The notes below the pieces were generated by a model. It made no database searches, was not told the origin of the DNA, and saw nothing but the letters and a program-made list of their open reading frames with translations. DNA of 43,955 bases from Pseudomonadota bacterium (lineage in GTDB: Bacteria > Desulfobacterota > Anaeroferrophillalia > Anaeroferrophillales > Tharpellaceae), in contig WFRP01000313.1 of the NCBI GenBank assembly GCA_015486505.1, positions 1 through 43,955 on the forward strand. Reading direction: 5' to 3'. Of this stretch, positions 1-43,955 are shown in pieces. The position numbers and the translations under genes are program-made. Numbering within the stretch: position 1 is the stretch's first letter; the number at the start of each line of letters is the position of its first letter.

Positions 1-337
1 CAGTTGAAAAAAGCTGTCGAAAAAAAACAAGAAAATAACCTGTAAGGTACTAATGCGGGAACAGATCCCGCAACCCAAACGGAGCCTTGCGGCCCGCACC
101 CAAGGGCACTTCCGATGGTCGCAAATAAGTGCTCTTATCAGAACATTTTCTTGTTTTAAAACAAGAAAATAACCTGTAAGGTACTAATGCGGGAACAGAT
201 CCCGCAACCCAAACAGGGCTTTTTCGGCCCGCACCCAGGGGCACTTCCGATGGTCGCAAATAAGTACTCTTATCAGAACATTTTCTGATTATTAAATCTT
301 GTTTTTTGGTGCAGAAAATAACCTGTAAGGTACTAAT
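1..337 (-). repeat. H-M modular repeat array A, truncated by the window edge. Read on +: partial H (loop L3), M(long), H(L2), M(long), H(L1). Two full units.
   Basis: Direct reading. GAAAATAACCTGTAAGGTAC-TAAT-GCGGGAACAGATCCCGC-AACCCAAAC...CGCAAATAA-GTRCTCTTATCAGAACATTTTC occurs twice (54-150 and 189-285). The array ends with an H arm plus TAAT at 314-337. Strand given is that of the better-folding (F) orientation. Confidence 0.9.
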
Positions 338-2092: not shown

Positions 2093-2352
2093 TAATGCGG
2101 GAACTAACTCCCGCAACCCAAACAGGGCTTTGTGCCCCGCAAATAAGTACTCTTATCAGAACATTTTCTTGTTTTTACAGTTGAAAAAAGCTGTCGAAAA
2201 AAACAAGAAAATAACCTGTAAGGTACTAATGCGGGAACTATCCCGCAACCCAAAAGAAAGTTTTCGGCCCGCAAATAAGTACTCTTATCAGAACATTTTC
2301 TGGATATTAAATCTTGTTTTTTGGTACAGAAAATAACCTGTAAGGTACTAAA
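2093..2352 (-). repeat. H-M repeat array B. Two full units with short M modules and loops L3 and L1. It fills the whole spacer between the nikL-like gene and cbiQ.
   Basis: Read on +: TAAT-GCGGGAACTAACTCCCGC...CGCAAATAA-H(L3)-TAAT-GCGGGAACTATCCCGC...CGCAAATAA-H(L1)-TAAA. The stop codon of the upstream gene (2348-2350) lies inside the terminal H arm junction. Confidence 0.9.
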
Positions 2353-10207: not shown

Positions 10208-10718
10208 GTAACTATTCAGCCAAATTTTACCCCCCCCCACCTTCTGGAGGGGGCGGGGGTGGTTTTTCGTAAGTGGTTGCGGAAACGATTTCGTTGTTTT
10301 TCGGAAGCGAGCGGGAGCCCATTAGTACCTTACAGGTTATTTTCTGCACCAAAAAACAAGATTTAATAATCAGAAAATGTTCTGATAAGAGTACTTATTT
10401 GCGGGTCGCAAGGCCCCGTTTGGGTTGCGGGATCTGTTCCCGCATTAGTGCCTTACAGGTTATTTTCTGTACCAAAAAACAAGATTTAACAGTCAGAAAA
10501 TGTTCTGATAAGAGTACTTATTTGCGACCATCGGATTGCCCCTGGGTGCGGGCTGAAAAGCCCTGTTTGGGTTGCGGGAGCTGTTCCCGCATCGGCATTG
10601 CAACTGTTTGAGCGTAGCGAGTTTTGCAAGGCGGGCGCAGCGAGCGTAAGGAAAAACAGAAATCTTAACGCCTGGCGGAGAAAAACCGCGCCCGACCCCG
10701 GATTCGGCTGAATAGTTA
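10208..10718 (+). mobile_element. T-family TIR element, long composite form (T1), carrying H-M array C internally
   Basis: Perfect 14-bp termini GTAACTATTCAGCC (10208-10221) and GGCTGAATAGTTAC (10705-10718). Left and right parts are collinear with the short copy at 16190-16367. The extra 325 bp (10314-10638) is bracketed by AGCGAGCG at 10306-10313 and 10639-10646. No clear TSD. Confidence 0.75.
10321..10594 (+). repeat. H-M repeat array C. Unit 1 is 10321-10443 (short M) and unit 2 is 10444-10590 (long M). Both have loop L1.
   Basis: ATTAGTACCTTACAGGTTATTTTC...GAAAATGTTCTGATAAGAGTACTTATTTGCG...GGGTTGCGGGAKCTGTTCCCGC occurs twice. The array ends in ATCG. Confidence 0.9.
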
Positions 10719-10807
10719 CTAAATAATTTTCAAAAAAAATCATTAAAGACATAAAAACAACCACTTATAACAATTCAGAAAAACTTTCTCACCCGGGAAC
10801 ACAAGCT

Positions 10808-11785: not shown

Positions 11786-11787
11786 TC

Positions 11788-12049
11788 TGATGCGGGAACA
11801 AGCCCCGCAACCCAATCGGGCATTTTCGGCCCGTACCCAGGGGCACTTCCTCTGATCGCAAATAAGTACTCTTATCAGAACATTTTCTGATTATTAAATC
11901 TTGTTTTTTGGTGCAGAAAATAACCTGTAAGGTACTGATGCGGGAATAATCCCCGCAACCCAATCGGGCCTTTTCGGCCCGCAAATAAGTGCTCTTATCA
12001 GAACATTTTCTTGTTTTTTCAAACCGAAAATAACCTGTAAGGTACTAAT
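11788..12049 (-). repeat. H-M repeat array D. Two units. Read on +: M(long)-H(L1)-M(short)-H(L4).
   Basis: It begins 2 nt after the cysE stop codon. Both unit junctions carry TGAT instead of TAAT, and both M modules carry the AACCCAATCGGG variant. Confidence 0.9.
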
Positions 12050-18654: not shown

Positions 18655-20907
18655 TTGCCTGACTCCGCCTTCGATACCGAACAAAACCTTAAAGATCACG
18701 CCCGCAAAGATCGCAAAAAACGCCGTCGGGAAATAATTATCATTTCCATTCTGATAATTGTTATCAGCGGCCTTTTCTATATCGAGATAAATCTGCCCCA
18801 CCTGCCGACCGATATGCCGATTATGGGCAATGTCATCGTTTTCGCCCTGATCAACATAAATATCATCCTGCTGCTGCTGCTGATTTTTCTGATCCTGCGC
18901 AACCTGATAAAACTTCTCCTCGAAAGAAAACGCAGGATCGTCGGTTTTCGCCTGCGCACCAAACTGGTAGTCGCCTTCATTTCGCTCTCACTTTTCCCGA
19001 CAATTCTGCTTTTTGTGGCAGCTACCGGCTTTATCCGTTTCAGTCTTGACAACTGGTTTTCAACCAACTTTGAAGCTTCACTCGACGCCTCGATGACGGT
19101 GGCCCAGGAATACTACGACACCTTCCGGCAACAGAACCAGACCCTTGCTGAAGCACTCGCCAAAGAAATAACCCGGAAAGGATTGATGATCAGCACGCAG
19201 AAAGAGCTTCTGCAGAAACTTACCGAAACTAAACGGGCCGAATACTCTCTCGACGCAATCGCCGTCTTCCCGCGCCCCGGCCCGCCTCTGGCCTGCGCCT
19301 TAAGTTTAAGCCCGAACCTGAGTAAGGAAAATTTCCAGGCCGGCATCAACCAGGATGAGCACCTGGAAAAACTGTCGAAAATCGTCCCGCTGCCGGACGG
19401 CGCTACCATGATTCAGGGCTGGGCCCCGATCCTCTCGACCTGGCAGGAAAATAAAACCGTTGCCCTGGTCCTGGCCAGCAAACAGATTCCCGCAGGCCTG
19501 GCGCAGAAGATGCGGGACATCTCGGAGAAATATACGGCCTACAAAAAAGCCAAAAGCATGGAGCTCTACATCAAAAGTAACTATATCCTGACTTTTGTTC
19601 TGATTACGGCCCTGATTACTTTTATCTCGATCTGGTTCGGTTTCTTTCTGGCCAAGGATATCACGGCCCCGGTCCACGAACTTGCGCTGGCGACCCGGCA
19701 GATTGCCGACGGCAACCTTGATTTCACCATCGATATGGTCGCCAGCGACGAACTCGGCATTCTGGTCGACTCCTTCAACAGTATGACCGAAAACCTGCTT
19801 GAAAGCCGCCGGGAACGGGAACTCGCCCATCTCGAAATGAGCCGCATCAGCTCCGAGCATGAAAAGCGCCGGCATTACATCGAAACCATCCTGAAAAACA
19901 TTACGACCGGGGTTATCGCCCTGGACCGCACCGGCTGCATTACGACCATCAACCAGGCCGCTGAAAATATTTTTTCCTTCGCCGCCAACACGATTCAAGG
20001 GAAAAATTACCGGGAAGTTTTTCACCAGGAACTGATCCAGAAAATCCGCCAATACTTTAAGGAAAGCCAGAACGAGCCTGACAAGAAAAGAAATCTTGAG
20101 CTGACCCTGCCTGACCGCAACCGTTACGTTTCCATAAGTTTCAGCCCCTTTATCGACGAAACGGAAGCCTACATCGGCATGCTCATAATTATCAACGATA
20201 TGACCGAGCTCGTCAAAGCCCAGAAAACCGTAGCCTGGCGCGAAGTCGCCCGCAGGATTGCCCACGAAATCAAAAACCCGCTTACCCCGATCGCCCTGTC
20301 GGCGCAGCGCATCCAGCGCAAATACAGCGATTTGACCGAAGAAGGCGACCATGTTTTAAAGAATTGCACCACCACAATCGTCCGTCAGGTTAACGATCTG
20401 AAATCTCTGGTTAACGAATTTTCCAGTTTTGCCCGGATGCCCCAGGCCAAACCGACCCTGCAGGATCTAAACCTGCTCATCGACGAATCTCTGGTTCTCT
20501 ACCGCCAGGGACACCCCCGGGTTGAATTCACATTTGCACCCGACACCCGGATACCCAGATTTTACCTGGATCAGGAACAGATCAAACGGGTTATGACCAA
20601 TCTGGTTGACAACGCCCTGGCCGCATTGAAAAACGTGGATTCCGCCAAAGTCTGGATTGCCACCAGACTTGACAAAAGTCTGGAAATGGTTATTATCGAG
20701 CTCAACGACAACGGCCCGGGCATGGATGAAAGGACTCAGGCCCGCCTGTTCGAGCCTTACTTCTCCACCAAAAAAAGAGGTACCGGCTTAGGCCTGACCA
20801 TTGTTAAAACGATTATCAACGACCATCGCGGCTTTATCCGGGTCCGTGAAAATCACCTGAAAGGCACCTGCTTTGTTATTGAGCTGCCGATCATTGTCAG
20901 CATTTAG
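18655..20907 (+). CDS. ntrY: Sensor histidine kinase NtrY-like (4 TM, HAMP, PAS, HisKA, HATPase)
   Basis: H-box AHEIKNPLTPIALSAQRI, and ATP-lid motifs DNGPGM and GTGLGLTIVK. TTG start 3 nt after the upstream stop. The stop codon TAG (20905-20907) lies in the TTTAG start of repeat array E. Confidence 0.85.
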   Translation: MPDSAFDTEQNLKDHARKDRKKRRREIIIISILIIVISGLFYIEINLPHLPTDMPIMGNVIVFALININIILLLLLIFLILRNLIKLLLERKRRIVGFRLRTKLVVAFISLSLFPTILLFVAATGFIRFSLDNWFSTNFEASLDASMTVAQEYYDTFRQQNQTLAEALAKEITRKGLMISTQKELLQKLTETKRAEYSLDAIAVFPRPGPPLACALSLSPNLSKENFQAGINQDEHLEKLSKIVPLPDGATMIQGWAPILSTWQENKTVALVLASKQIPAGLAQKMRDISEKYTAYKKAKSMELYIKSNYILTFVLITALITFISIWFGFFLAKDITAPVHELALATRQIADGNLDFTIDMVASDELGILVDSFNSMTENLLESRRERELAHLEMSRISSEHEKRRHYIETILKNITTGVIALDRTGCITTINQAAENIFSFAANTIQGKNYREVFHQELIQKIRQYFKESQNEPDKKRNLELTLPDRNRYVSISFSPFIDETEAYIGMLIIINDMTELVKAQKTVAWREVARRIAHEIKNPLTPIALSAQRIQRKYSDLTEEGDHVLKNCTTTIVRQVNDLKSLVNEFSSFARMPQAKPTLQDLNLLIDESLVLYRQGHPRVEFTFAPDTRIPRFYLDQEQIKRVMTNLVDNALAALKNVDSAKVWIATRLDKSLEMVIIELNDNGPGMDERTQARLFEPYFSTKKRGTGLGLTIVKTIINDHRGFIRVRENHLKGTCFVIELPIIVSI

Positions 20908-21381
20908 TTCTGCACAAAAAAACAAGATTTAATAATCAGAAAATGTTCTGACAAGAGTACTTAGTCAACTTTATGACTTGATGTAAGTGGTAGTTTTTAC
21001 AGGTTTTGTTGTGTTTTTTTGCAAATGATTTCATCTTGTTACTCTTTGCGCCTTTGCGTCTTTGCGGGATAACTTCTTTTTGTCTCCCGCCAAGACGCAA
21101 AGACGCAAAGAAAAACCGCGGGCAAATGATTTTATCAATAAATATCAGTTGTTTAACCTAACTCAGAAAGTTGAGGTACTTATTTGCGACCATCGGAAGT
21201 ACCCTTGGGTGCGGGCCGAAAAGGCGCGATCGGGTTACGCAATTTGTTCCCGCATTAGTACCTTACAGGTTATTTTCTGCACAAAAAAACAAGATTTAAT
21301 ATCCAGAAAATGTTCTGATAAGAGTACTTATTTGCGGGCCGCAAGGCTTCGTTTGGGTTGCGGGATTTGTTCCCGCATTAG
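20905..21381 (+). repeat. H-M repeat array E. Two units; the first is decayed (5' H arm deleted, 3' hairpin degenerate) and interrupted by MITE-V. It fills the ntrY-ntrX spacer.
   Basis: TTTAG-TTCTGCAC… lacks 16 nt of the canonical ATTAGTACCTTACAGGTTATTTTCTGCAC. The unit resumes at 21176 (GTACTTATTTGCGACCATCGG…). A second, intact unit spans 21244-21376. The array ends in ATTAG, 10 nt before the ntrX ATG. Confidence 0.88.
20965..21174. mobile_element. MITE-V, a 210-bp TIR element nested inside an H-M unit
   Basis: Termini are TCAACTTTATGACTT… and …AACTCAGAAAGTTGA (8 nt perfect, about 13/15 overall). GTACTTA is duplicated at 20957-20963 and 21176-21182. It carries the REP-V palindrome at 21045-21110. 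Confidence 0.75.
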
Positions 21382-24753: not shown

Positions 24754-27042
24754 ATGGAACAGGATAATCAAACCATAACTCCGGATGCCGCTGAAAAGCA
24801 GTTTCTCGGCCAGTTTACGGAAAAAGCCTATCTCGAATACGCGATGTACGTTATTCTTGACCGGGCGCTCCCCTATATCGGGGACGGCCTTAAACCGGTG
24901 CAGCGCCGCATTATTTACGCGATGTCGGAATTAGGGCTTAAAGCCGGAGCCAAATATAAAAAATCAGCCCGGACCGTCGGGGATGTCTTAGGTAAATTCC
25001 ACCCGCACGGCGATACCGCCTGCTACGAGGCCATGGTGGTTATGGCCCAGCCTTTCACCTACCGTTATCCTTTGATTGACGGCCAGGGCAACTGGGGCGC
25101 GCCCGATGATCCGAAATCATTTGCCGCCATGCGTTACACCGAATCCCGGCTTTCCGCCTATGCCGAACTTCTTTTAAGTGAATTAGGCAGCGGTACGGTT
25201 GACTGGGATGACAATTTCGACGGTACCTTGAAGGAGCCGAAACTGCTGCCGGCGCGGCTGCCGAATATCCTGTTGAACGGCAGCACCGGCATTGCCGTCG
25301 GCATGGCCACCGACATTCCACCGCATAACCTGAAAGAGGTTGCGGCCGCCTGTATTCACCTGCTGGACCACCCCAACGCGACGACAAAGGATCTCTGCCG
25401 CTTCATCAAGGGGCCCGATTTCCCGACCCGCACCGAAATCATCACCCCGAATGAAGAAATTGTCAAAATTTACGAAAAAGGCAACGGTTCAATCAAGATG
25501 CGGGCGGTTTACCATAAGGAAGATAACGACATTGTTATCACCGCGCTGCCGCATCAGGCTTCCGGAGCCCGGATAATGGAGCAGATCGCCGCCCAGATGC
25601 AGGCGAAGAAACTGCCCCTGGTCGCTGATTTACGGGACGAATCCGACAATGAAGAGCCGGTGCGGCTGGTCATAATTCCGCGCTCAAACCGGATCGACTG
25701 CGAGCAGTTGATGGCCCATCTTTTTGCGACCACCGATCTTGAAAAAAATTATCGGATAAACCTTAACCTGATTGCCCTTGACGGCCGGCCCCGGGTGATG
25801 AATCTTGCGGAAATGATCGGCGAATGGCTGACGTTCCGCACCGGGGTTGTCCGCCGCCGCTTAAACTTCCGTCTCGACAAGGTCAAAGCCCGTCTCCACA
25901 TCTTAAGCGGCCTTTTAACCGCTTTTTTGAACCTTGATGAAGTCATTGAAATTATCCGCAACCACGACCGCCCCAAACCGATCCTGATTAAACGTTTCGC
26001 TTTGAGTGATATGCAGGCGGAAGCCATTCTTGAGCTTAAACTGCGCCACCTGGCCAAACTCGAAGAAATGAAAATCCGCGGCGAAGAAGATGAACTCGAA
26101 CAGGAACGCCGCGGCCTCGAAGAGATTTTAGCTTCGCCGGCAAAGCTCAAAAGCCTGATCCGGAAAGAAATCAAAGCCTGTGCCAAAAAGTATGGCGATG
26201 AACGGCGCTCCCCGACCGTAGTTCGCAGTGAAGCCCAGGCCTTGACCACGACCGACCTTCTGCCCACCGAGGCAATTACGGTGATTCTTTCCAATAAAGG
26301 CTGGATCCGGGCCGCCAAAGGCCACGATATCAACCCGGAAAAGATTAATTACCGGGCCGGTGACGGTTTTAAGCAGGCGGTTCCCGGGCGCAGCAACCAG
26401 CCGGTAATTTTTCTCTCCACCAGCGGCCGCTGCTACACTCTGCCCTCGCACAACCTGCCTTCGGCCCGCAGCCACGGCGAGCCTTTAAGCGGACGCCTGC
26501 AACTTGAAAACGACGCCCACATAGAACATCTGCTGATGGGCGCCGAAAACGACCTCTTTCTTATCGCCGCAGATTCGGGCTACGGCTTTATCGCCAAACT
26601 TGCGGATTTAACCAGCAAGAACAAAAGCGGCAAAGCGGTGCTCACACTGCCGCCCGGCAGTTTACCCCTGCCGCCGCTGGCCGTCAAAAATATTGAAGAA
26701 GAAAATCTGGTGGCTTTGAGCAGCAGCGGGCGCATGCTGATTTTCCCCCTGGCGCAGCTGCCGCTGCTGCCGCGCGGCAAAGGTAATAAGATTATCCATT
26801 TCGCTCCGAATCGAGCTGAACACGAAAAGGAAATCTTGAAATCGATCGTTATTCTGCCGGCCGGAGCGACCCTGAAGGTCTACGCCGGCCGCCGCCATTT
26901 AACCTTGAAAAAAGAGAGTCTTGAACGCTATTTCGGCAATCGCGGCCGCCGTGGCCAGATGCTGCCGCACGGCCTGCAGCGCGCGGAACGGATTGAGGTG
27001 ATTACGACAACCGCTGAAAAGGAGAAAAAAGATGACAATTGA
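24754..27042 (+). CDS. parC: DNA topoisomerase IV subunit A
   Basis: Active-site Tyr context [10 protein letters not shown]. The C-terminal region is closely ParC-like ([24 protein letters not shown]…, [13 protein letters not shown]) and has no GyrA-box. Confidence 0.88.
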
Positions 27043-27367
27043 TTGGGCCTATATGCGCAAAGGTTGAAGCTCCTGCAAAAAAGCCCAGGAGTTTCTGGAC
27101 AACCGGGAAGTTACAATCAGAGAAACCACTGATGCCCGCAAGGAACGTATCGACCACGATCAGGCCTGGGAAATTTTATCCCCGGCCAATGAAATCACCA
27201 TCGCCAAAGGTAAAAAACAGCTCAAATTCACGCCCGAACCGGCGCGGCGGGAGGAAATTCTCAAAGCCGCCATCGGCCCCAGCGGCAACCTGCGGGCCCC
27301 AACCTTAAAGATCGGTCCCCAAATCCTCATCGGCTTCAATCCGGATCTTTATCAAGCCGTATTCTAG
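27032..27367 (+). CDS. ArsC/Spx/YffB-family thioredoxin-fold protein with in-frame TGA (predicted selenocysteine, UxxC redox motif), 111 aa
   Basis: The ATG at 27032 (AAGGAG 8 nt upstream) overlaps the parC end. The frame reads [11 protein letters not shown]-[TGA 27065-27067][15 protein letters not shown]…[27 protein letters not shown] and stays open to the TAG at 27365. The TGA sits where the family has its N-terminal catalytic Cys (compare E. coli YffB …NCDTCKKARRWLE). A hairpin lies directly downstream. The ORF track misses it because there is no Met after the TGA. Confidence 0.75.
27068..27100 (+). promoter_or_regulatory. Candidate bacterial SECIS-like stem-loop downstream of the in-frame UGA
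   Basis: AGCUCCUG-(10 nt)-CAGGAGUU forms an 8-bp stem including one G.U (27068-27093). An alternative is CCAG-GAGUUU-CUGG (27085-27098), whose loop begins 21 nt after the UGA. Confidence 0.5.
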
Positions 27368-30307: not shown

Positions 30308-30433
30308 AATATTTTGCCTTAAGCTCAACTTCATAACTTAAGATAACACGTTGATTTACAAGCTAATTTTCATTTGATAGCAATAGCATTTTCATAATGC
30401 CTCCATAACTCGGCGAATATATTTCAAAATATC

Positions 30434-30572
30434 TAATGCGGGAACAATCCCCGCAACCTAATCGGGCCTTTTCGGCCCGCACCCAAGGGCACTTCCGTTG
30501 GGCGCAAATAAGTACTCTTATCAGAACATTTTCTTGTTTTTTCAAACCGAAAATAACCTGTAAGGTACTAAC
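30434..30572 (-). repeat. H-M repeat locus F, a single unit (long M, loop L4) between glcD and glcF
   Basis: TAAT-GCGGGAACAATCCCCGC-AACCTAATCGGGCCTTTTCGGCC-CGCACCCAAGGGCACTTCCGTTGGG-CGCAAATAA-H(L4)-TAAC. It ends 16 nt before the glcF ATG. Confidence 0.9.
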
Positions 30573-34967: not shown

Positions 34968-35337
34968 ATTAGTACCTTACAGGTTATTTTCTGCACAAAA
35001 AAACAAGATTTAATATCCAGAAAATGTTCTGATAAGAGTACTTATTTGCGGGCCGCAAGGCTTCGTTTGGGTTGCGGGACTTGTTCCCGCATTAGTACCT
35101 TACAGGTTATTTCTTGTTCAAAAAAACAAGAAATGTTCTGATAAGAGTACTTATTTGCGGGCCGAAAAGGCTCGATTGGGTTGCGGGGATTGTTCCCGCA
35201 TTAGTACCTTACAGGTTATTTTCTTGTTTTTTTCGACAGCTTTTTTCAACTGTAAAAACAAGAAAATGTTCTGATAAGAGTACTTATTTGCGGGCCGCAA
35301 GGCCCTGTTTGGGTTGCGGGATCCGTTTCCGCATTAG
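34968..35337 (+). repeat. H-M repeat array G. Three complete units (34968-35090, 35091-35199, 35200-35332) plus a terminal ATTAG. Loops are L1, L5 and L3.
   Basis: Cleanest array in the window. It lies between convergent genes, starting 10 nt after the kinase stop and ending 3 nt before the waaA stop. Confidence 0.93.
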
Positions 35338-38861: not shown

Positions 38862-39368
38862 ATGGAAATTGCAATTTTGACAACTCTCTGTCTGTTCGGC
38901 ATAATCGGCACGCTGGTGCCGGTTATGCCGGGTTGCGGCCTGATTTTTATCGGGGCTTTCGCTTACGCCCTGCTGACAAATTTTCAGATTATTTCCGGCC
39001 CGGAAGTCCTGGTCCTGCTCGGTTTGATGCTGGCCGGCTCAATCGGCCAGTTTTTCATCACCAGCCTCGGGGCCCGGGTTATGGGGGCGGGGAAATATGG
39101 GGTTGTCGGGGCTTTCTGCGGATTTTTTTTCGGCCTGATCTTTATTCCGGCTCCGGGCGGCTCTCTGATCGGTGCCTTTGCCGGGGCCTTCATCTGTGAG
39201 CTGACCTTTGCCGTTAAAAGTCAGCGGGAAAGCGTCAAGGCCGGAATCGGCGCGGTTATCGGCGCAATCTTCAGCCTCTTTTTTGAGTTTTTCATCGGCA
39301 TAATTATGATCGCCTACACCCTGTCAATCATCTGGCACAACCCAATCCCGCCGACTATCATTCTCTAA
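38862..39368 (+). CDS. Small integral membrane protein (DUF456-like)
   Basis: 168 aa with four Gly/Ala-rich TM segments. GGTGGTG lies upstream of the ATG. The stop codon TAA (39366-39368) is the TAAT junction of repeat locus H. Confidence 0.75.
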   Translation: MEIAILTTLCLFGIIGTLVPVMPGCGLIFIGAFAYALLTNFQIISGPEVLVLLGLMLAGSIGQFFITSLGARVMGAGKYGVVGAFCGFFFGLIFIPAPGGSLIGAFAGAFICELTFAVKSQRESVKAGIGAVIGAIFSLFFEFFIGIIMIAYTLSIIWHNPIPPTIIL

Positions 39369-39504
39369 TGCGGGAACAGCTCCCGCAACCCAAAAGAAAG
39401 TTTTCGGCCCGCACCCAAGGGCACTTCCGATGGTCGCAAATAAGTACTCTTATCAGAACATTTTCTTGTTTTTTCAAACCGAAAATAACCTGTAAGGTAC
39501 TAAT
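39366..39504 (-). repeat. H-M repeat locus H, a single unit (long M, loop L4)
   Basis: TAAT-GCGGGAACAGCTCCCGC-AACCCAAAAGAAAGTTTTCGGCC-CGCACCCAAGGGCACTTCCGATGGT-CGCAAATAA-H(L4)-TAAT. It shares the AAAAGAAAGTTTTC variant with unit 2 of array B. Confidence 0.9.
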
Positions 39505-39534
39505 AGCAAACAATCGAATGCAAGCAGTTATAAC

Positions 39535-39620
39535 CTCCCGCAAAGACGCAAAGGCGCCAAGAAAACCGAAAACGATCAACGTTACCTGAAACCCTTTGCG
39601 TCTTTGCGTCTTTGCGGGAG
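39535..39620. repeat. REP-V palindrome (arms TCCCGCAAAGACGCAAAG… / …CTTTGCGTCTTTGCGGGAG, about 40-nt loop)
   Basis: The same approximately 26-nt arm occurs as an inverted pair in the opposite arrangement at 21045-21110, inside MITE-V. Confidence 0.75.
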
Positions 39621-39659
39621 ACATTAAGATGAATAGTTAGAAATCTTACAACTTAAGGC

Positions 39660-42600
39660 TTATAGCTTATAACCACACTCTTTACTTAACCGGTCGCCGA
39701 GAACCGCGACCAGAGAGTCAACTTTATAGGGTTTGGAAACCATAGCGTTAAAACCATAGGCCTCAAAATTAGCCATTACCGGGTCTTGCGAGTAGCCGCT
39801 GGAAACAATCGCGAAGACTTCGGCATCGAGGTTGCGTAAATGTTTGATCGCCTCGCGACCGCCCATCCCCCCCGGAATCGAGATATCCATTAAAACGGCA
39901 TGAAATTTCTGGCCCGCCTGCTGGGCCGCCTTATAGGCTTCAAGCATTGCCACGCCGTCCTCAACGGCGACAACTTCATATCCCAACATCTCCAGCATTT
40001 CACTGACCACATCGCGAATCACCTCTTCATCATCCATCAGCAGGATACGACTGGATTCGGATTGAACAGCATTCTCCAAGCTTTTCCGGGGCATTTCAAG
40101 ATTGTGGACGGGCTCTTTTTCGCATTTGCCGGTTGCCGGCAGGAAGAAGCTGAATGTCGCCCCGATTCCAGGCTGGCTGTCAACCTCGATGCGCCCTTCA
40201 TGATTTGCGATAATCGAATAACTGGTCGCCAGCCCGAGGCCGCTGCCGGTCTCTTTACTGGTAAAATAGGGTTCAAAAATTCGCGGCAGGATTGCCGGGT
40301 CAATGCCGCCGCCATCATCCTGAACCGAAACTTTAACATAATAGCCGGGTTTAAGATTCGGATACTCATCGACGGCCGCCAGAATATTTTTGATCGTCAC
40401 CCGAATAATTCCGGCATCCAGCATTGCCTGCCGGGCATTGGTAATCAGATTATTTACCACCTGGCTAATCTGGCCGGAATCGATCTCAACCCCCCAGATA
40501 TCCTCTTCAATTTCGTATTCAACTTTAATCTGCGAACCGTGCAGAACAAATTCGGCCGACTCTTTAACCAGAGCCGGAAGTTTAGCCCGATCCTTAATCG
40601 GCGCCCCGCCTTTGGCAAAGGTTAAAAGCTGCTGTGCCAAAGCCACGGCCCGCTCAATCGCCCGATCGGCCCGGGCCAGATATGCCTCGGTTTTTTCCCG
40701 GTTTTCACCGCAGGAAATCTTAATCAGATCCAGGCTTCCCTGCATCCCCATCAGAAGATTATTAAAGTCATGCGCGATCCCTCCGGCGAGAAGTCCGACC
40801 GCCGTCAGTTTTTCGCTCCGGATACGTTCCTGCTGCATTTTTCTCTCAGTGCGCACATCCCGAAAAACCAGCACTACCCCCAGACATTGCCCCGCCTGCG
40901 TCAGAATCGGCGCGGCCGAATCGGCGATGATAATTTCCTCTCCGCTATGTGAAATCAGCAAGACATGGCTCATCAATTCAATAATCCGGTTTTCCTGTAA
41001 AGCCTGAGCCACCGGACAACGCATCGTTTTCCGGCTGTTCTCATTGATAATCCGGAAAACGTCACTGATGTTCTTGCCTAAAGCATCAGCGCTCTTCCAG
41101 CCGGTCAGGTTCTCGGCGACCGGATTAATCAGGGTTATCAAACCGTCGGTATCGGTAGTGATGACGCCGTCACCGATACTGCGCAAGGTTACCGCCAGAC
41201 GCTCCTGCTCCATCTGCAGAAACTCTTCCGCCAGTTTACGCGCCGTAATATCCCGGTTACTGCCGCGCGCGCCCATAGCTTCCCCGTCGGGACCGGTTAC
41301 CGGACGGCAGATGTGGTTTAACCAGCGAATGGAACCATCCTTGTGGTGAATCCGAAACTCAATCGGCCGAAATGTGCCGTCCTGCTCAACTTCATGCCGG
41401 TGATCGACAAATATTTCACGATCCTCCGCGACCACGATATCATTCATCAGAAGATAATTATCGTAAAAATCCTGCTGCGAATAGCCGGTAACCTTTTCGC
41501 AGGACGGGGAGAGGTAGATAAATTCCCCTTTTTCATTACGCCAGCACTCCATATCATAAGCATAGTCCGCCACCATACGATAGCGCTGTTCGCTCTCGCG
41601 CAATCTTTCCTCGGCCGCTTCGCGCAACTTTCGATCTTCTCTCAACGATGCCACCATCAGGTCAAAACAGTGGGCAAAGGCCCCGATTTCATCATCGGGG
41701 AAATCTCCGGTAACCGGCTCCAGAGAGCCCTGCCGAATTCGTTCACTCGCCTGAAAAAGACTGGCAATCGGCCGCGTCATGGAGCGGGAAAGATACCAGC
41801 TGCCGAGCAGAATCAACCCCAGAGACAGGCTAAAGACATAGATGAAAGTTTTACGCAAGGTATGGGCGAGGACGTAGGCTTTGGCAATCGGCATCTCACT
41901 TATTACCAGCAGCGGCAGGCCCTTGACCTTGACCGCAACCCCCAGCACTGCCTGCTGGGCTACATTCCGGTACTCGGCATAAGCCGATTCCGCCCCCTTG
42001 AGAACTTTGGCTACCGGCACATAATGGTCGACCCTGACCCCCTGCAGAACATATTCAATCTCGTTATGGGCAACAATTTCCCCCTGCATATTTATCAAAG
42101 AAAGCTGATGGGCACCGGTGGCTCGGCGGGGGAAATTATTAAACAAGGTCTTTAGGTTAATTTCGGCATAAAGATAGCCCTGCTGCTTACCGGTCTTAAG
42201 GGAAAAAATCGGATAGACCAGAACCAGTTGCGGCTCCAGCCGCCACTGACTGAAAAAAACCATCTCTTTGCGGGGAAATTCAGTGGTATAGGCGGAGAGG
42301 GGCGAGAGACTGCCGGGACTCAGATAACCATAACGGGCCACTGATTCAACCACCCGGTTCTTAGTATTGACAACGACGATTTTACAGATTTCATGGTGCT
42401 GGCGATAGACCCAGGACAAAAGCCTGCCATTCTTGCGCGTAAACAGATATTGACTTGCCGTAAATTTGACGGCATCGCGAACCTCGCCGATATGCCAGGC
42501 CACCTGTCTACCGGCAACCCGGGCTTCCGCCATGCTGGAACGAGCGACATCACGATAAAGGTAACTCTGCAGCACCCCGTAAAAATAGAGCGAACTGCCC

Positions 42601-43782: not shown

Positions 43783-43894
43783 GTAACTATTCAGCCAAAA
43801 TTTCCCCCCCCCACCTTCTGGAGGGGGCGGGGGTGGTTTTTCGTAAGCGGTTGCGGAAACGATTTCGTTGTTTTTCGGAAGCGAGCGGGAGCCC
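43783..43894 (+). mobile_element. T-family element, left part (T3), continuing into an H-M array and the window end
   Basis: GTAACTATTCAGCCAAAATTTCCCCCCCCCACCTTCTGGAGGGGGCGGGGGTGG…GAAGCGAGCGGGAGCCC is nearly identical to 10208-10320. Confidence 0.8.
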
Positions 43895-43955
43895 ATTAGT
43901 ACCTTACAGGTTATTTTCGGTTTGAAAAAACAAGAAAATGTTCTGATAAGAGTAC
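43895..43955 (+). repeat. H-M repeat locus I (an H hairpin with loop L4, truncated by the window end)
   Basis: ATTAGTACCTTACAGGTTATTTTC-GGTTTGAAAAAACAA-GAAAATGTTCTGATAAGAGTAC. Confidence 0.9.

Follow-up and report, generated by a model that had tools for sequence, protein, structure and literature searches.

A putatively mobile, gene-less hairpin element of uncultured Thermodesulfobacteriota whose two ends together equal its target

The stretch analysed here, contig WFRP01000313.1 with its 43,955 nt (the window), carries repeated units that follow one another without a gap, as at positions 2092 to 2351, where a first-pass annotation had noticed that each unit ends in the same ATTA that precedes the first one. 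How do such arrays arise, and what kind of element builds them? That annotation had offered two routes, a 3-bp TTA duplication or insertion 3' of a fixed ATTA as in IS200/IS605 and RAYT-type HUH systems, and had supposed that an element whose 3' end re-creates its target would form tandem arrays automatically. We favour, with moderate confidence, a reading in which the units are non-autonomous mobile DNA elements of uncultured Thermodesulfobacteriota/'Deltaproteobacteria' that insert in one orientation at TT^AG (^ marks the cut) by means of an enzyme acting in trans. The rule that distinguishes the element is that its ends together equal its target.

An nhmmer profile built from the copies in the window and scanned over the 43,955 nt finds 17 unit matches; they form nine arrays, the smallest of one unit and the largest of at least three, and the element makes up about 5% of the window. 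On the strand that we call structured, the unit is gene-less, 108-150 nt long, and reads from 5' to 3' AGTACCTTACAGGTTATTTTC-(variable tip)-GAAAATGTTCTGATAAGAGTACT-TATTTGCG-(optional 25 nt)-small hairpin-TTTGGGTT-GCGGGA-N5-TCCCGC-ATT. Its first module, H, runs from AGTACCTTACAGGTTATTTTC to GAAAATGTTCTGATAAGAGTACT and is an imperfect hairpin of 56-80 nt, flush with the 5' end of the element and variable at its tip (four tip types, v1 to v4, in the window); the second, G, is the remaining 51-78 nt from TATTTGCG to ATT. Hairpins thus lie subterminally at both ends of one strand, H at the 5' end and the GC hairpin GCGGGA-N5-TCCCGC 3 nt from the 3' end, and terminal inverted repeats are absent, the ends AGTACCTTAC… and …TCCCGCATT not being inverted copies of each other. 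In the window, the pattern GCGGGA-N2-8-TCCCGC has 9 matches against 0.03 expected, and a 21-mer of the H arm has 16 against 0. The long and short forms of G differ by the 25 nt, which are flanked by TGCG direct repeats, so that recurrent deletion could yield the short form from the long. The array at 2092-2351 (array B, minus strand) illustrates the plan, reading TT^AG-H (70 nt)-G (51 nt, ending in ATT)^AG-H (80 nt)-G (53 nt, ending in ATT)^AG. Neither H without G nor G without H occurs in about 1.2 Mb of sequence, and for this reason we rejected the notion that H and G are separate mobile modules. A CRISPR-like nature was rejected for the lack of unique spacers, and a terminator for the lack of a T-run after the 3' hairpin on either strand.

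Comparison with related genomes establishes that the unit is an insertion. Array B separates a HI_1622_C-like gene, whose TAG stop lies at 2348-2350, from cbiQ, ending 5 nt before its ATG (2085-2087). In relatives the same two genes overlap by ATGA (L016 and L019, with cbiQ 83% and 71% identical to that of the window) or stand 8 nt apart (L017, 74%), compared with the 256-nt array here; taking array B and one copy of the site out of the window leaves CCTTTAGAAATATG, a normal tight operon junction. The gap between the kinase and regulator genes is 28-31 nt in L101-L104, where the window has array E (about 480 nt), and the gap between glcD and glcF is 9-10 nt in the same loci, where the window has unit F. 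At the junction of regulator and parE it is L102-L106 that hold one unit, antisense to its flanking genes in L102, whereas the window, L101, L107 and L112 hold none. At the site of array A, a relative reads CCATCAG and the window CCATTAG-TACC. The emptiness of these sites in relatives marks the unit as inserted DNA and not as conserved local sequence.

The distribution of the unit points in the same direction. The closest sequenced relative, GCA_054019515.1 (loci L016 and L101), is free of copies over 43 kb, whereas the window has 17 in 44 kb, which indicates that the family expanded recently and strongly. The unit also occurs, alone or as a short array and with flanks of the same pattern, in several other metagenome-assembled genomes (MAGs) of Thermodesulfobacteriota/'Deltaproteobacteria'; a pattern scan of genome contigs found at least 13 loci with it. 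Two loci of one genome (L011 4453-4628 and L019 2631-2805) share an H with a 62-nt H-like internal insert, a rearranged subfamily whose presence at both loci indicates that whole units are copied and that the subfamily has spread. No copy was found in 80 unrelated metagenome loci (about 0.9 Mb), which were fetched with the protein encoded between arrays C and D, show no synteny beyond that gene and serve as a negative control only; nor was any found in viral contigs (by scan) or in plasmids (by BLAST with the unit). The ParC-linked loci L107-L112 and L115-L118 yielded no further filled sites. In the parE/parC spacer of L107 (7925-7975, also in L108-L111) there is a very weak match to the middle of the unit (E = 0.007), preceded by ATTAG, which may be a decayed remnant or a chance match.

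Where exactly does the element begin and end? Only one pair of loci gives an empty and a filled site to the base, L101 (empty) and L102 (filled). The former reads …CGGATATTTCAACGAAT^ATGAATCAGG and the latter …CGGATATCTCAACGAAT(GCGGGAAC…CTGTAAGGTACTAAT)ATGAATCAGG, with the element in parentheses; taken in its other extent, the pair reads …CTCAACGAAT^ATGAATCAG and …CTCAACGAAT(GCGGGAAC…AAGGTACTAAT)ATGAATCAG. On the structured strand, the empty CATATT^CGTTGAG corresponds to the filled CATATT^AGTACC…CCCGCATT^CGTTGAG. A second exact empty site was sought in L003 against L113 and L114, where the flanks are too diverged or the contig starts just after the site. The redundancy in the L101/L102 pair is ATT only, 3 nt, which fits an element that carries its own ATT but would, by sequence alone, look the same as a 3-bp duplication. 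Read from this single pair, the boundary falls at ATT^AG, so that the AG after the left ATT would belong to the element and the AG that usually follows the right ATT to the target. The stem of H starts at the first base, A, of the element thus defined, in agreement with this boundary, and the pairing AGTAC…GTACT at its foot is present in 26/26 copies. The first-pass annotation had asked for such sites in relatives, expecting a single (A)TTA there; sites are indeed empty, but the one exact example contains ATT and no TTA, which excludes a TTA duplication. Its alternative, insertion 3' of a fixed ATTA, holds insofar as one polarity is kept at a short asymmetric target, but the cut would lie one base further to the left, at ATT^AG.

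The flanks of the other copies extend this picture. First units are preceded by NTTA, as ATTA in six window arrays, TTTA in one and GTTA in one; arrays C and K share one upstream repeat, leaving 7 independent left flanks in the window. Among 13 copies from other MAGs, TTTA or ATTA stands before the first unit in 12 and ATCA in one. Left flanks thus end in TT, preceded by A or T (once by G). After the final ATT comes AG in 17/21 independent loci and G as the second base in 19/21, the chance expectation for AG being about 1/16. The motif that the flanks share is properly TTAG, rather than the (A)TTA of the first-pass annotation; array C terminates in ATCGG. The preferred target would thus be (A/T)TT^AG, read on both sides of the cut. 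Relative to TT^AG, polarity is identical in every scorable locus, which under free orientation would have a probability of about 2^-20.

This last observation bears on whether we are dealing with an ordinary miniature inverted-repeat transposable element (MITE) of the kind that a DDE transposase moves, leaving a short duplication of the target (TTA, TTAG or ATT). A direct repeat of 3-5 nt does flank every unit or array, and H alone resembles an inverted-repeat pair between TTA…TTA. However, fixed polarity at the non-palindromic TTAG, together with the lack of terminal inverted repeats on the whole unit, argues against a DDE-type MITE, as do the strict association of H with G, the exact empty site without TTA, and the unequal copies of the 'duplication', ATT without exception on the right but with A, T or G as first base on the left. 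The same DNA contains a genuine MITE, which shows what a DDE-type insertion looks like by contrast, with 15-nt inverted terminal arms and a 7-bp duplication. We consider a DDE-moved MITE very unlikely. The genuine MITE (20964-21175, inside an H-G unit of array E) has the arms TCAACTTTATGACTT and AACTCAGAAAGTTGA and is flanked by GTACTTA, the duplicated sequence, at 20957-63 and 21176-82; in its core, three 8-mers CTTTGCGY in tandem face three RCGCAAAG. More copies of its family lie at 39505-39660 (palindrome 39539-39616) and at about 12600-12900 of L101, with a fragment at 30318-30345.

The arrays are listed here with the span of their units, the profile match in parentheses, and the units in the order of the structured strand:

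Array A, 1..334, minus strand (match 1-336): A1 334 to 186 (v1, long G), A2 185 to 52 (v2, long G), A3 51 to 1 (v3, cut by the window edge).
Array B, 2094..2349, minus strand (match 2092-2351): B1 2349 to 2228 (v1, short G), B2 2227 to 2094 (v3, short G); target halves TT at 2350-2351 and AG at 2092-2093.
Array C, 10324..10593, plus strand (match 10322-10595): C1 10324-10446, C2 10447-10593 (3' end ATC, then GG).
Array D, 11789..12046, minus strand (match 11787-12048): D1 12046 to 11937 (v4, short G), D2 11936 to 11789 (v1, long G); both 3' ends ATC.
Array E, 20906..21379, plus strand (match 20904-21381): a first unit and an intact second unit, 21257-21379.
Unit F, single, 30435..30569, minus strand (match 30433-30571): v4, long G.
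Array G, 34971..35335, plus strand (match 34969-35337): G1 34971-35093 (v1), G2 35094-35202 (v2), G3 35203-35335 (v3); all short G.
Unit J, single, 39367..39501, minus strand (match 39365-39503): v4, long G.
Unit K, 43898..43955, plus strand (match 43896-end): v4, cut by the window edge; preceded by the second copy of a repeat, 'P'.

Every array begins with H, finishes with G and keeps one orientation, and the internal junctions, CCCGCAT(T/C)A/GT(A/G)CC, are exact and without spacer in 10 of 10 cases (8 in the window, 2 in L004). The claim that the arrays are strictly head-to-tail is therefore borne out, and the examples quoted for it are correct (ATTA at 34968-34971 before GTACC, and CCGC-ATTA-G at 35333-35337); array G is flanked by GATT on the left and AG (35336-35337) on the right. 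Array D had been said to have ATCA throughout, but this is so only at its internal and terminal junctions, ATTA preceding the first unit. The 3' variant ATC is restricted to units C2, D1 and D2, in neighbouring arrays. In array E, the first unit retains AG but not the ~16 nt of H that follow, and the 212-bp MITE interrupts it at GTACTTA.

Could each array have grown in place, from one ancestral insertion, through replication slippage or unequal crossing-over? In favour of this, units follow one another in tandem and without seams, and the REPIN clusters of Pseudomonas fluorescens SBW25 are mostly tandem, near-identical copies including flanking sequence (PMC3116915). Here, however, the nearest relative of a unit lies in another array for 14/14 complete units. 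Identity within arrays averages 0.775 and reaches at most 0.83, whereas the best match between arrays is 0.91-0.99 for each unit; E2, the second unit of array E, and G1, 13.7 kb apart, are 99% identical, differing in one base of 122. Neighbours in an array also differ in H tip type and in having a long or short G. Since units are least alike within arrays and have their closest relatives elsewhere, slippage and local duplication are contradicted, and the arrays are mosaics of different subfamilies. Slippage from one insertion per site, which the first-pass annotation had named as the case that would undo its proposal, is the least probable of all the accounts that we weigh, although the odd unit might still be gained or lost in this way.

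The arrays are most simply explained by repeated insertion at TT^AG sites that each resident copy re-creates at both ends. The element starts with AG and ends with ATT, so that both new junctions read (N)TT^AG again; the idea that the 3' end re-creates the target and so produces arrays is thus upheld and extended, as the 5' end takes part as well. Frequent abutting (9/17 units abut another unit), in sequence in which TTAG is common, implies that preference for the site beside a resident element, adjoining a hairpin, must be strong. The tip order v1-v2-v3 is common to arrays A and G, whose G modules differ, and v1-v3 is found in array B, which hints that several units may move, or be lost, as a block.

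In the mechanism that we favour, the element would insert, in one polarity, between the TT and AG of (A/T)TT^AG-like sites, and its AG start and ATT end would re-create the target at both new junctions. Each resident copy would then offer two perfect new targets beside a hairpin, so that later copies, often of another subfamily, would land adjacent to it and build seamless head-to-tail mosaics. The same rule makes insertion silent at stop codons: entry into T^AG restores TAG, and on the other strand T^AA restores TAA, so that copies can sit in tight operon junctions. Indeed, arrays B and E begin inside TAG stops (of genes ending at 2348 and 20907), the latter formed by TT (20904-20905) and the element AG at the end of an NtrY-like kinase gene. 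Unit J ends inside a TAA stop (39366-39368, of a DUF456 gene), which consists of the reverse complement of the 3' ATT and the target half. At array A, the ATG of a small open reading frame (ORF) shares bases with the left flank CCATT. This tiny ORF (338-409), which the array abuts, has 23 aa here and 36 aa in L016 (18405-18515); the insertion point removes its first 13 codons, and the ATG now used overlaps the target half (TAATG).

What enzyme might do this? With RNA energy parameters, the structured strand is the more stable one in 25/26 units (mean -44.9 versus -40.0 kcal/mol). Fixed polarity, asymmetric hairpin ends, the 3-nt redundancy and the more stable strand point to a strand-specific nick-and-join enzyme rather than a DDE transposase. 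It would act in trans, presumably through a single-stranded intermediate, and be encoded outside the window. An HUH-type enzyme, whether a Y1 transposase, a RAYT or Rep/relaxase-like, would be a candidate, as would a recombinase working on a folded hairpin; our best guess is an HUH-type or other strand-specific, site-specific enzyme.

The closest known kinds of element are REPIN/REP with RAYT and the gene-less IS200/IS605 derivatives (PATEs), and on the features that define them our element belongs to neither. Like REPINs, it is a high-copy, gene-less intergenic element with a long imperfect hairpin and a variable loop, seems to make no target duplication and is presumably mobilised in trans by a single-copy enzyme; its clusters, too, seem to arise by insertion into or next to existing copies, some of them tandem (PMC3116915). 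As defined, however, a REP is a 20-40-nt imperfect palindrome tagged GTAG (or CGTC), and a REPIN an inverted pair of REPs (PMC3733652, PMC3116915). Our element has no such tag; it is 108-150 nt long, about half of it non-palindromic, and joins hairpin H to the non-palindromic G module of 51-78 nt. Its arrays are strictly head-to-tail and mosaic, whereas the REPIN clusters of SBW25, some of them tandem, are mostly near-identical duplications (PMC3116915), and all units of an array have the same orientation, unlike the REPs of BIMEs, which are regularly spaced and alternate in orientation (PMC2817692). No RAYT gene was found in the window or the fetched loci.

With IS200/IS605 PATEs, the element shares asymmetric ends, hairpins on one strand, the lack of inverted terminal repeats and, as it seems, insertion 3' of a short motif without true duplication, and to this extent the IS200/IS605- or RAYT-type HUH proposal of the first-pass annotation fits. 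It does not fit in other respects. The flank motif of our element is identical to its own 3' motif (ATT), whereas in ISGst2 the transposon-adjacent motif (TAM) and the transposon-encoded motif (TEM) differ, and changing TAM to TEM abolishes excision (PMC10055086). In IS200/IS605, the flank and end motifs are read by a guide 5' of the hairpin foot, and the cut is distant from the hairpin (PMC10055086).

Several points weigh against the mechanism that we favour. The cuts of our element abut the hairpin feet (0 nt on the left, 3 nt on the right), which leaves no room for guides, and neither hairpin has a guide-like complement of ATT on its 5' side. Unlike that of IS608, the target is two-sided (TT^AG), with a preference for AG 3' of the cut; to our knowledge, a strong preference of this kind is not a feature of IS200/IS605 targeting. 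IS608 and ISDra2 target the lagging-strand template. Our element shows no such orientation bias, with 4 arrays on the plus and 5 on the minus strand overall (a small sample) and, where GC skew is negative (8-44 kb), 4 against 3, and there is no linked tnpA or tnpB. Neither the window nor the annotated related loci contain a gene for a transposase, recombinase or HUH protein, as the first-pass annotation had already said of the window, nor did any version of the element, in the window or the loci examined, carry a gene. Apart from the L101/L102 pair, the empty sites are too diverged for base-level boundaries. With DNA energy parameters, applied to one unit, the two strands are about equal (-20.7 versus -22.4 kcal/mol). 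Lastly, two truncated copies (in the window from 20906 and in L008 from 5015), which keep TT and AG and have lost the next 16-45 nt of H, are not accounted for by this mechanism.

The hairpin followed by a two-sided site recalls another branch of the HUH family. HUH Rep and relaxase nick sites consist of a hairpin followed, a few bases later, by the nick. The element resembles them in its GC hairpin with ATT^AG 3 nt on and in its two-sided site, and initiation at one site with termination at the next would release exactly one unit. It differs in that there is no linked Rep/relaxase gene and in that its units are chromosomal and dispersed. A two-sided nick site just after a hairpin would be more Rep/relaxase-like than IS200/IS605-like. 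One could go further and suppose that units are bounded by nick sites (the GC hairpin, then ATT^AG) and that a novel enzyme pastes single-stranded circles of one or several units into TT^AG. This would be a minimal transposon, its two ends together forming the target, silent in stop codons and self-assembling into mosaic arrays; a variant would follow the same logic with an RNA-copied, SINE-like element. We regard so specific a scheme as unlikely.

A recombinase could also account for targets that regenerate. Here, a tyrosine or serine recombinase would act on a folded or duplex site, with H as an attC-like or CTX-phage-like site, or with the circle joint …CCCGCATT-AGTACC… as an attP-like core that recombines with targets resembling ATT(AG). 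Every integration would then restore the core, as happens in the cassette arrays of integrons and in tandem integrations that depend on Xer. Like integron and Xer-dif systems, our element regenerates its site upon insertion and stacks head-to-tail, its site being an imperfect hairpin with a variable centre. Fixed polarity and seamless junctions would fit as well, as would a target that resembles the joined ends on both sides of the crossover, (A/T)TT^AG against ATT^AG; H is attC-like in its fixed bulges, wobble positions and variable tip. The shared core, however, is only 3-5 nt, with the rest of each target unrelated, and there are dozens of dispersed sites instead of one platform, with no integrase or attI-like site nearby. 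The integron core GTTRRRY, in its R''/L''…L'/R' arrangement, is absent, as is an integrase in the window; the 'cassettes' are gene-less; and arrays run from H first to G last, which on this strand is the opposite of cassette content followed by attC. A recombinase of this type is a minor possibility in our judgement.

The better folding of one strand raises the further question of whether the unit is primarily a structured RNA, either a multicopy small RNA or an element that processes or stabilises transcripts, with its spread being secondary. H has two conserved G·T wobble positions (22-23/26 copies; Watson-Crick pairs in the variants), which would be G·U-type in RNA, and the small hairpin of G often has GNRA-like loops (GCAA, GAAA, GTAA, GTGA) on stems that vary while pairing is kept. 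One unit folded as RNA has z = -4.05, and sequence is strongly conserved across different genomes. However, there is no Rfam match at gathering score over the whole window, only chance-level matches (including microRNA) at permissive thresholds (E<=10), and neither a promoter-like site inside units nor a terminator-like hairpin at their end was found in the two arrays scanned. Covariation is almost nil (3/30 pairs, term -0.75 kcal/mol), the family being too conserved to tell RNA from single-stranded-DNA pairing. Units lie in both orientations relative to neighbouring genes, those of D, F and the L102 copy being antisense to their flanks (F to both a glcD-like and a glcF-like gene) and J antisense to DUF456, and the sites that they occupy differ between close relatives. 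Where copies have diverged, the 5' side of the 3' hairpin is eroded but CCCGCATT is invariant, a pattern suggestive of recognition by sequence rather than by pairing. A primarily RNA function thus seems improbable to us, slightly more so than a recombinase.

Spread through RNA is a separate matter. A bacterial SINE-like element, inserted by target-primed reverse transcription of an RNA intermediate, would have RNA-like fold features on one strand and could explain the two truncated copies, which are independent and lack 5' parts of H beside an intact upstream TTTAG (20904-20908; L008 5010-5016). There are only these two, however, and both keep the first two bases, which fits internal deletion better. 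Moreover, there is no duplication of variable length, no A-rich or primer-like tail, no internal promoter-like site in the two arrays scanned, and no reverse transcriptase in the loci examined. We consider this reading still less probable than a DDE-moved MITE.

The genes of the window are of housekeeping and sensory types: a cbiMQO-type cobalt transporter operon, a chemoreceptor, kinases, regulators, a TRAP transporter, ParE/ParC, NFACT, GlcD/GlcF-like proteins, KdtA and a radical SAM protein. The 117-nt 'P' repeat, GTAACTATTCAGCC…C9ACCTTCTGGAGGGGGCGGGGGTGG…GAGCCCATT, occurs at 10208-10324 and 43783-43898 in copies that are 97% identical, end in the same CCATT^AG motif and are each directly followed by an H-G unit, array C lying directly downstream of the first, after …GAGCCCATT. 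The first 14 nt of 'P' recur inverted at 10707-10720, about 500 nt downstream, so that array C may sit in a larger element bounded by inverted repeats; CTGAATAGTTAC of 'P' is also present in L115 and L117. A small conserved ORF with an in-frame TGA (27031-27366), which the ORF list misses as one ORF owing to this internal TGA, overlaps the parC stop. L101, L107 and L112 conserve both its TGA and the coding sequence beyond, and a hairpin CTCCTG…CAGGAG follows the TGA. It is a candidate selenoprotein gene; its product, with U replaced by C, has no Pfam match. Unrelated short repeat families (GGGGTCATTGC…GACCCC hairpins) occupy intergenic spacers at 9472-9782 of L102 and 1376-1596 of L115, and in L102 the GGGGTCATTGC repeats replace the small TGA-containing ORF.

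Six 11-12-mers of the unit, searched in full-text literature, gave only unrelated primer matches, and we take the family for an apparently undescribed variant of the REPIN/PATE kind. Its general logic is shared with REPINs and PATEs, and its interest would be higher if the enzyme proves unusual. An element with one half of its target at its start and the remaining half at its end would explain seamless head-to-tail mosaics without slippage, and the same rule would explain how copies come to lie in the T^AG or T^AA stop codons of operons while the proteins remain unchanged. For metagenomics of this group there is a practical consequence, as unit repeats fragment its assemblies (contigs L001, L004 and L007 end inside units). 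With its defined hairpins and cut site, the element also offers a substrate for an enzyme search, and with it the question of whether HUH-type enzymes can use flank and end motifs that are identical.

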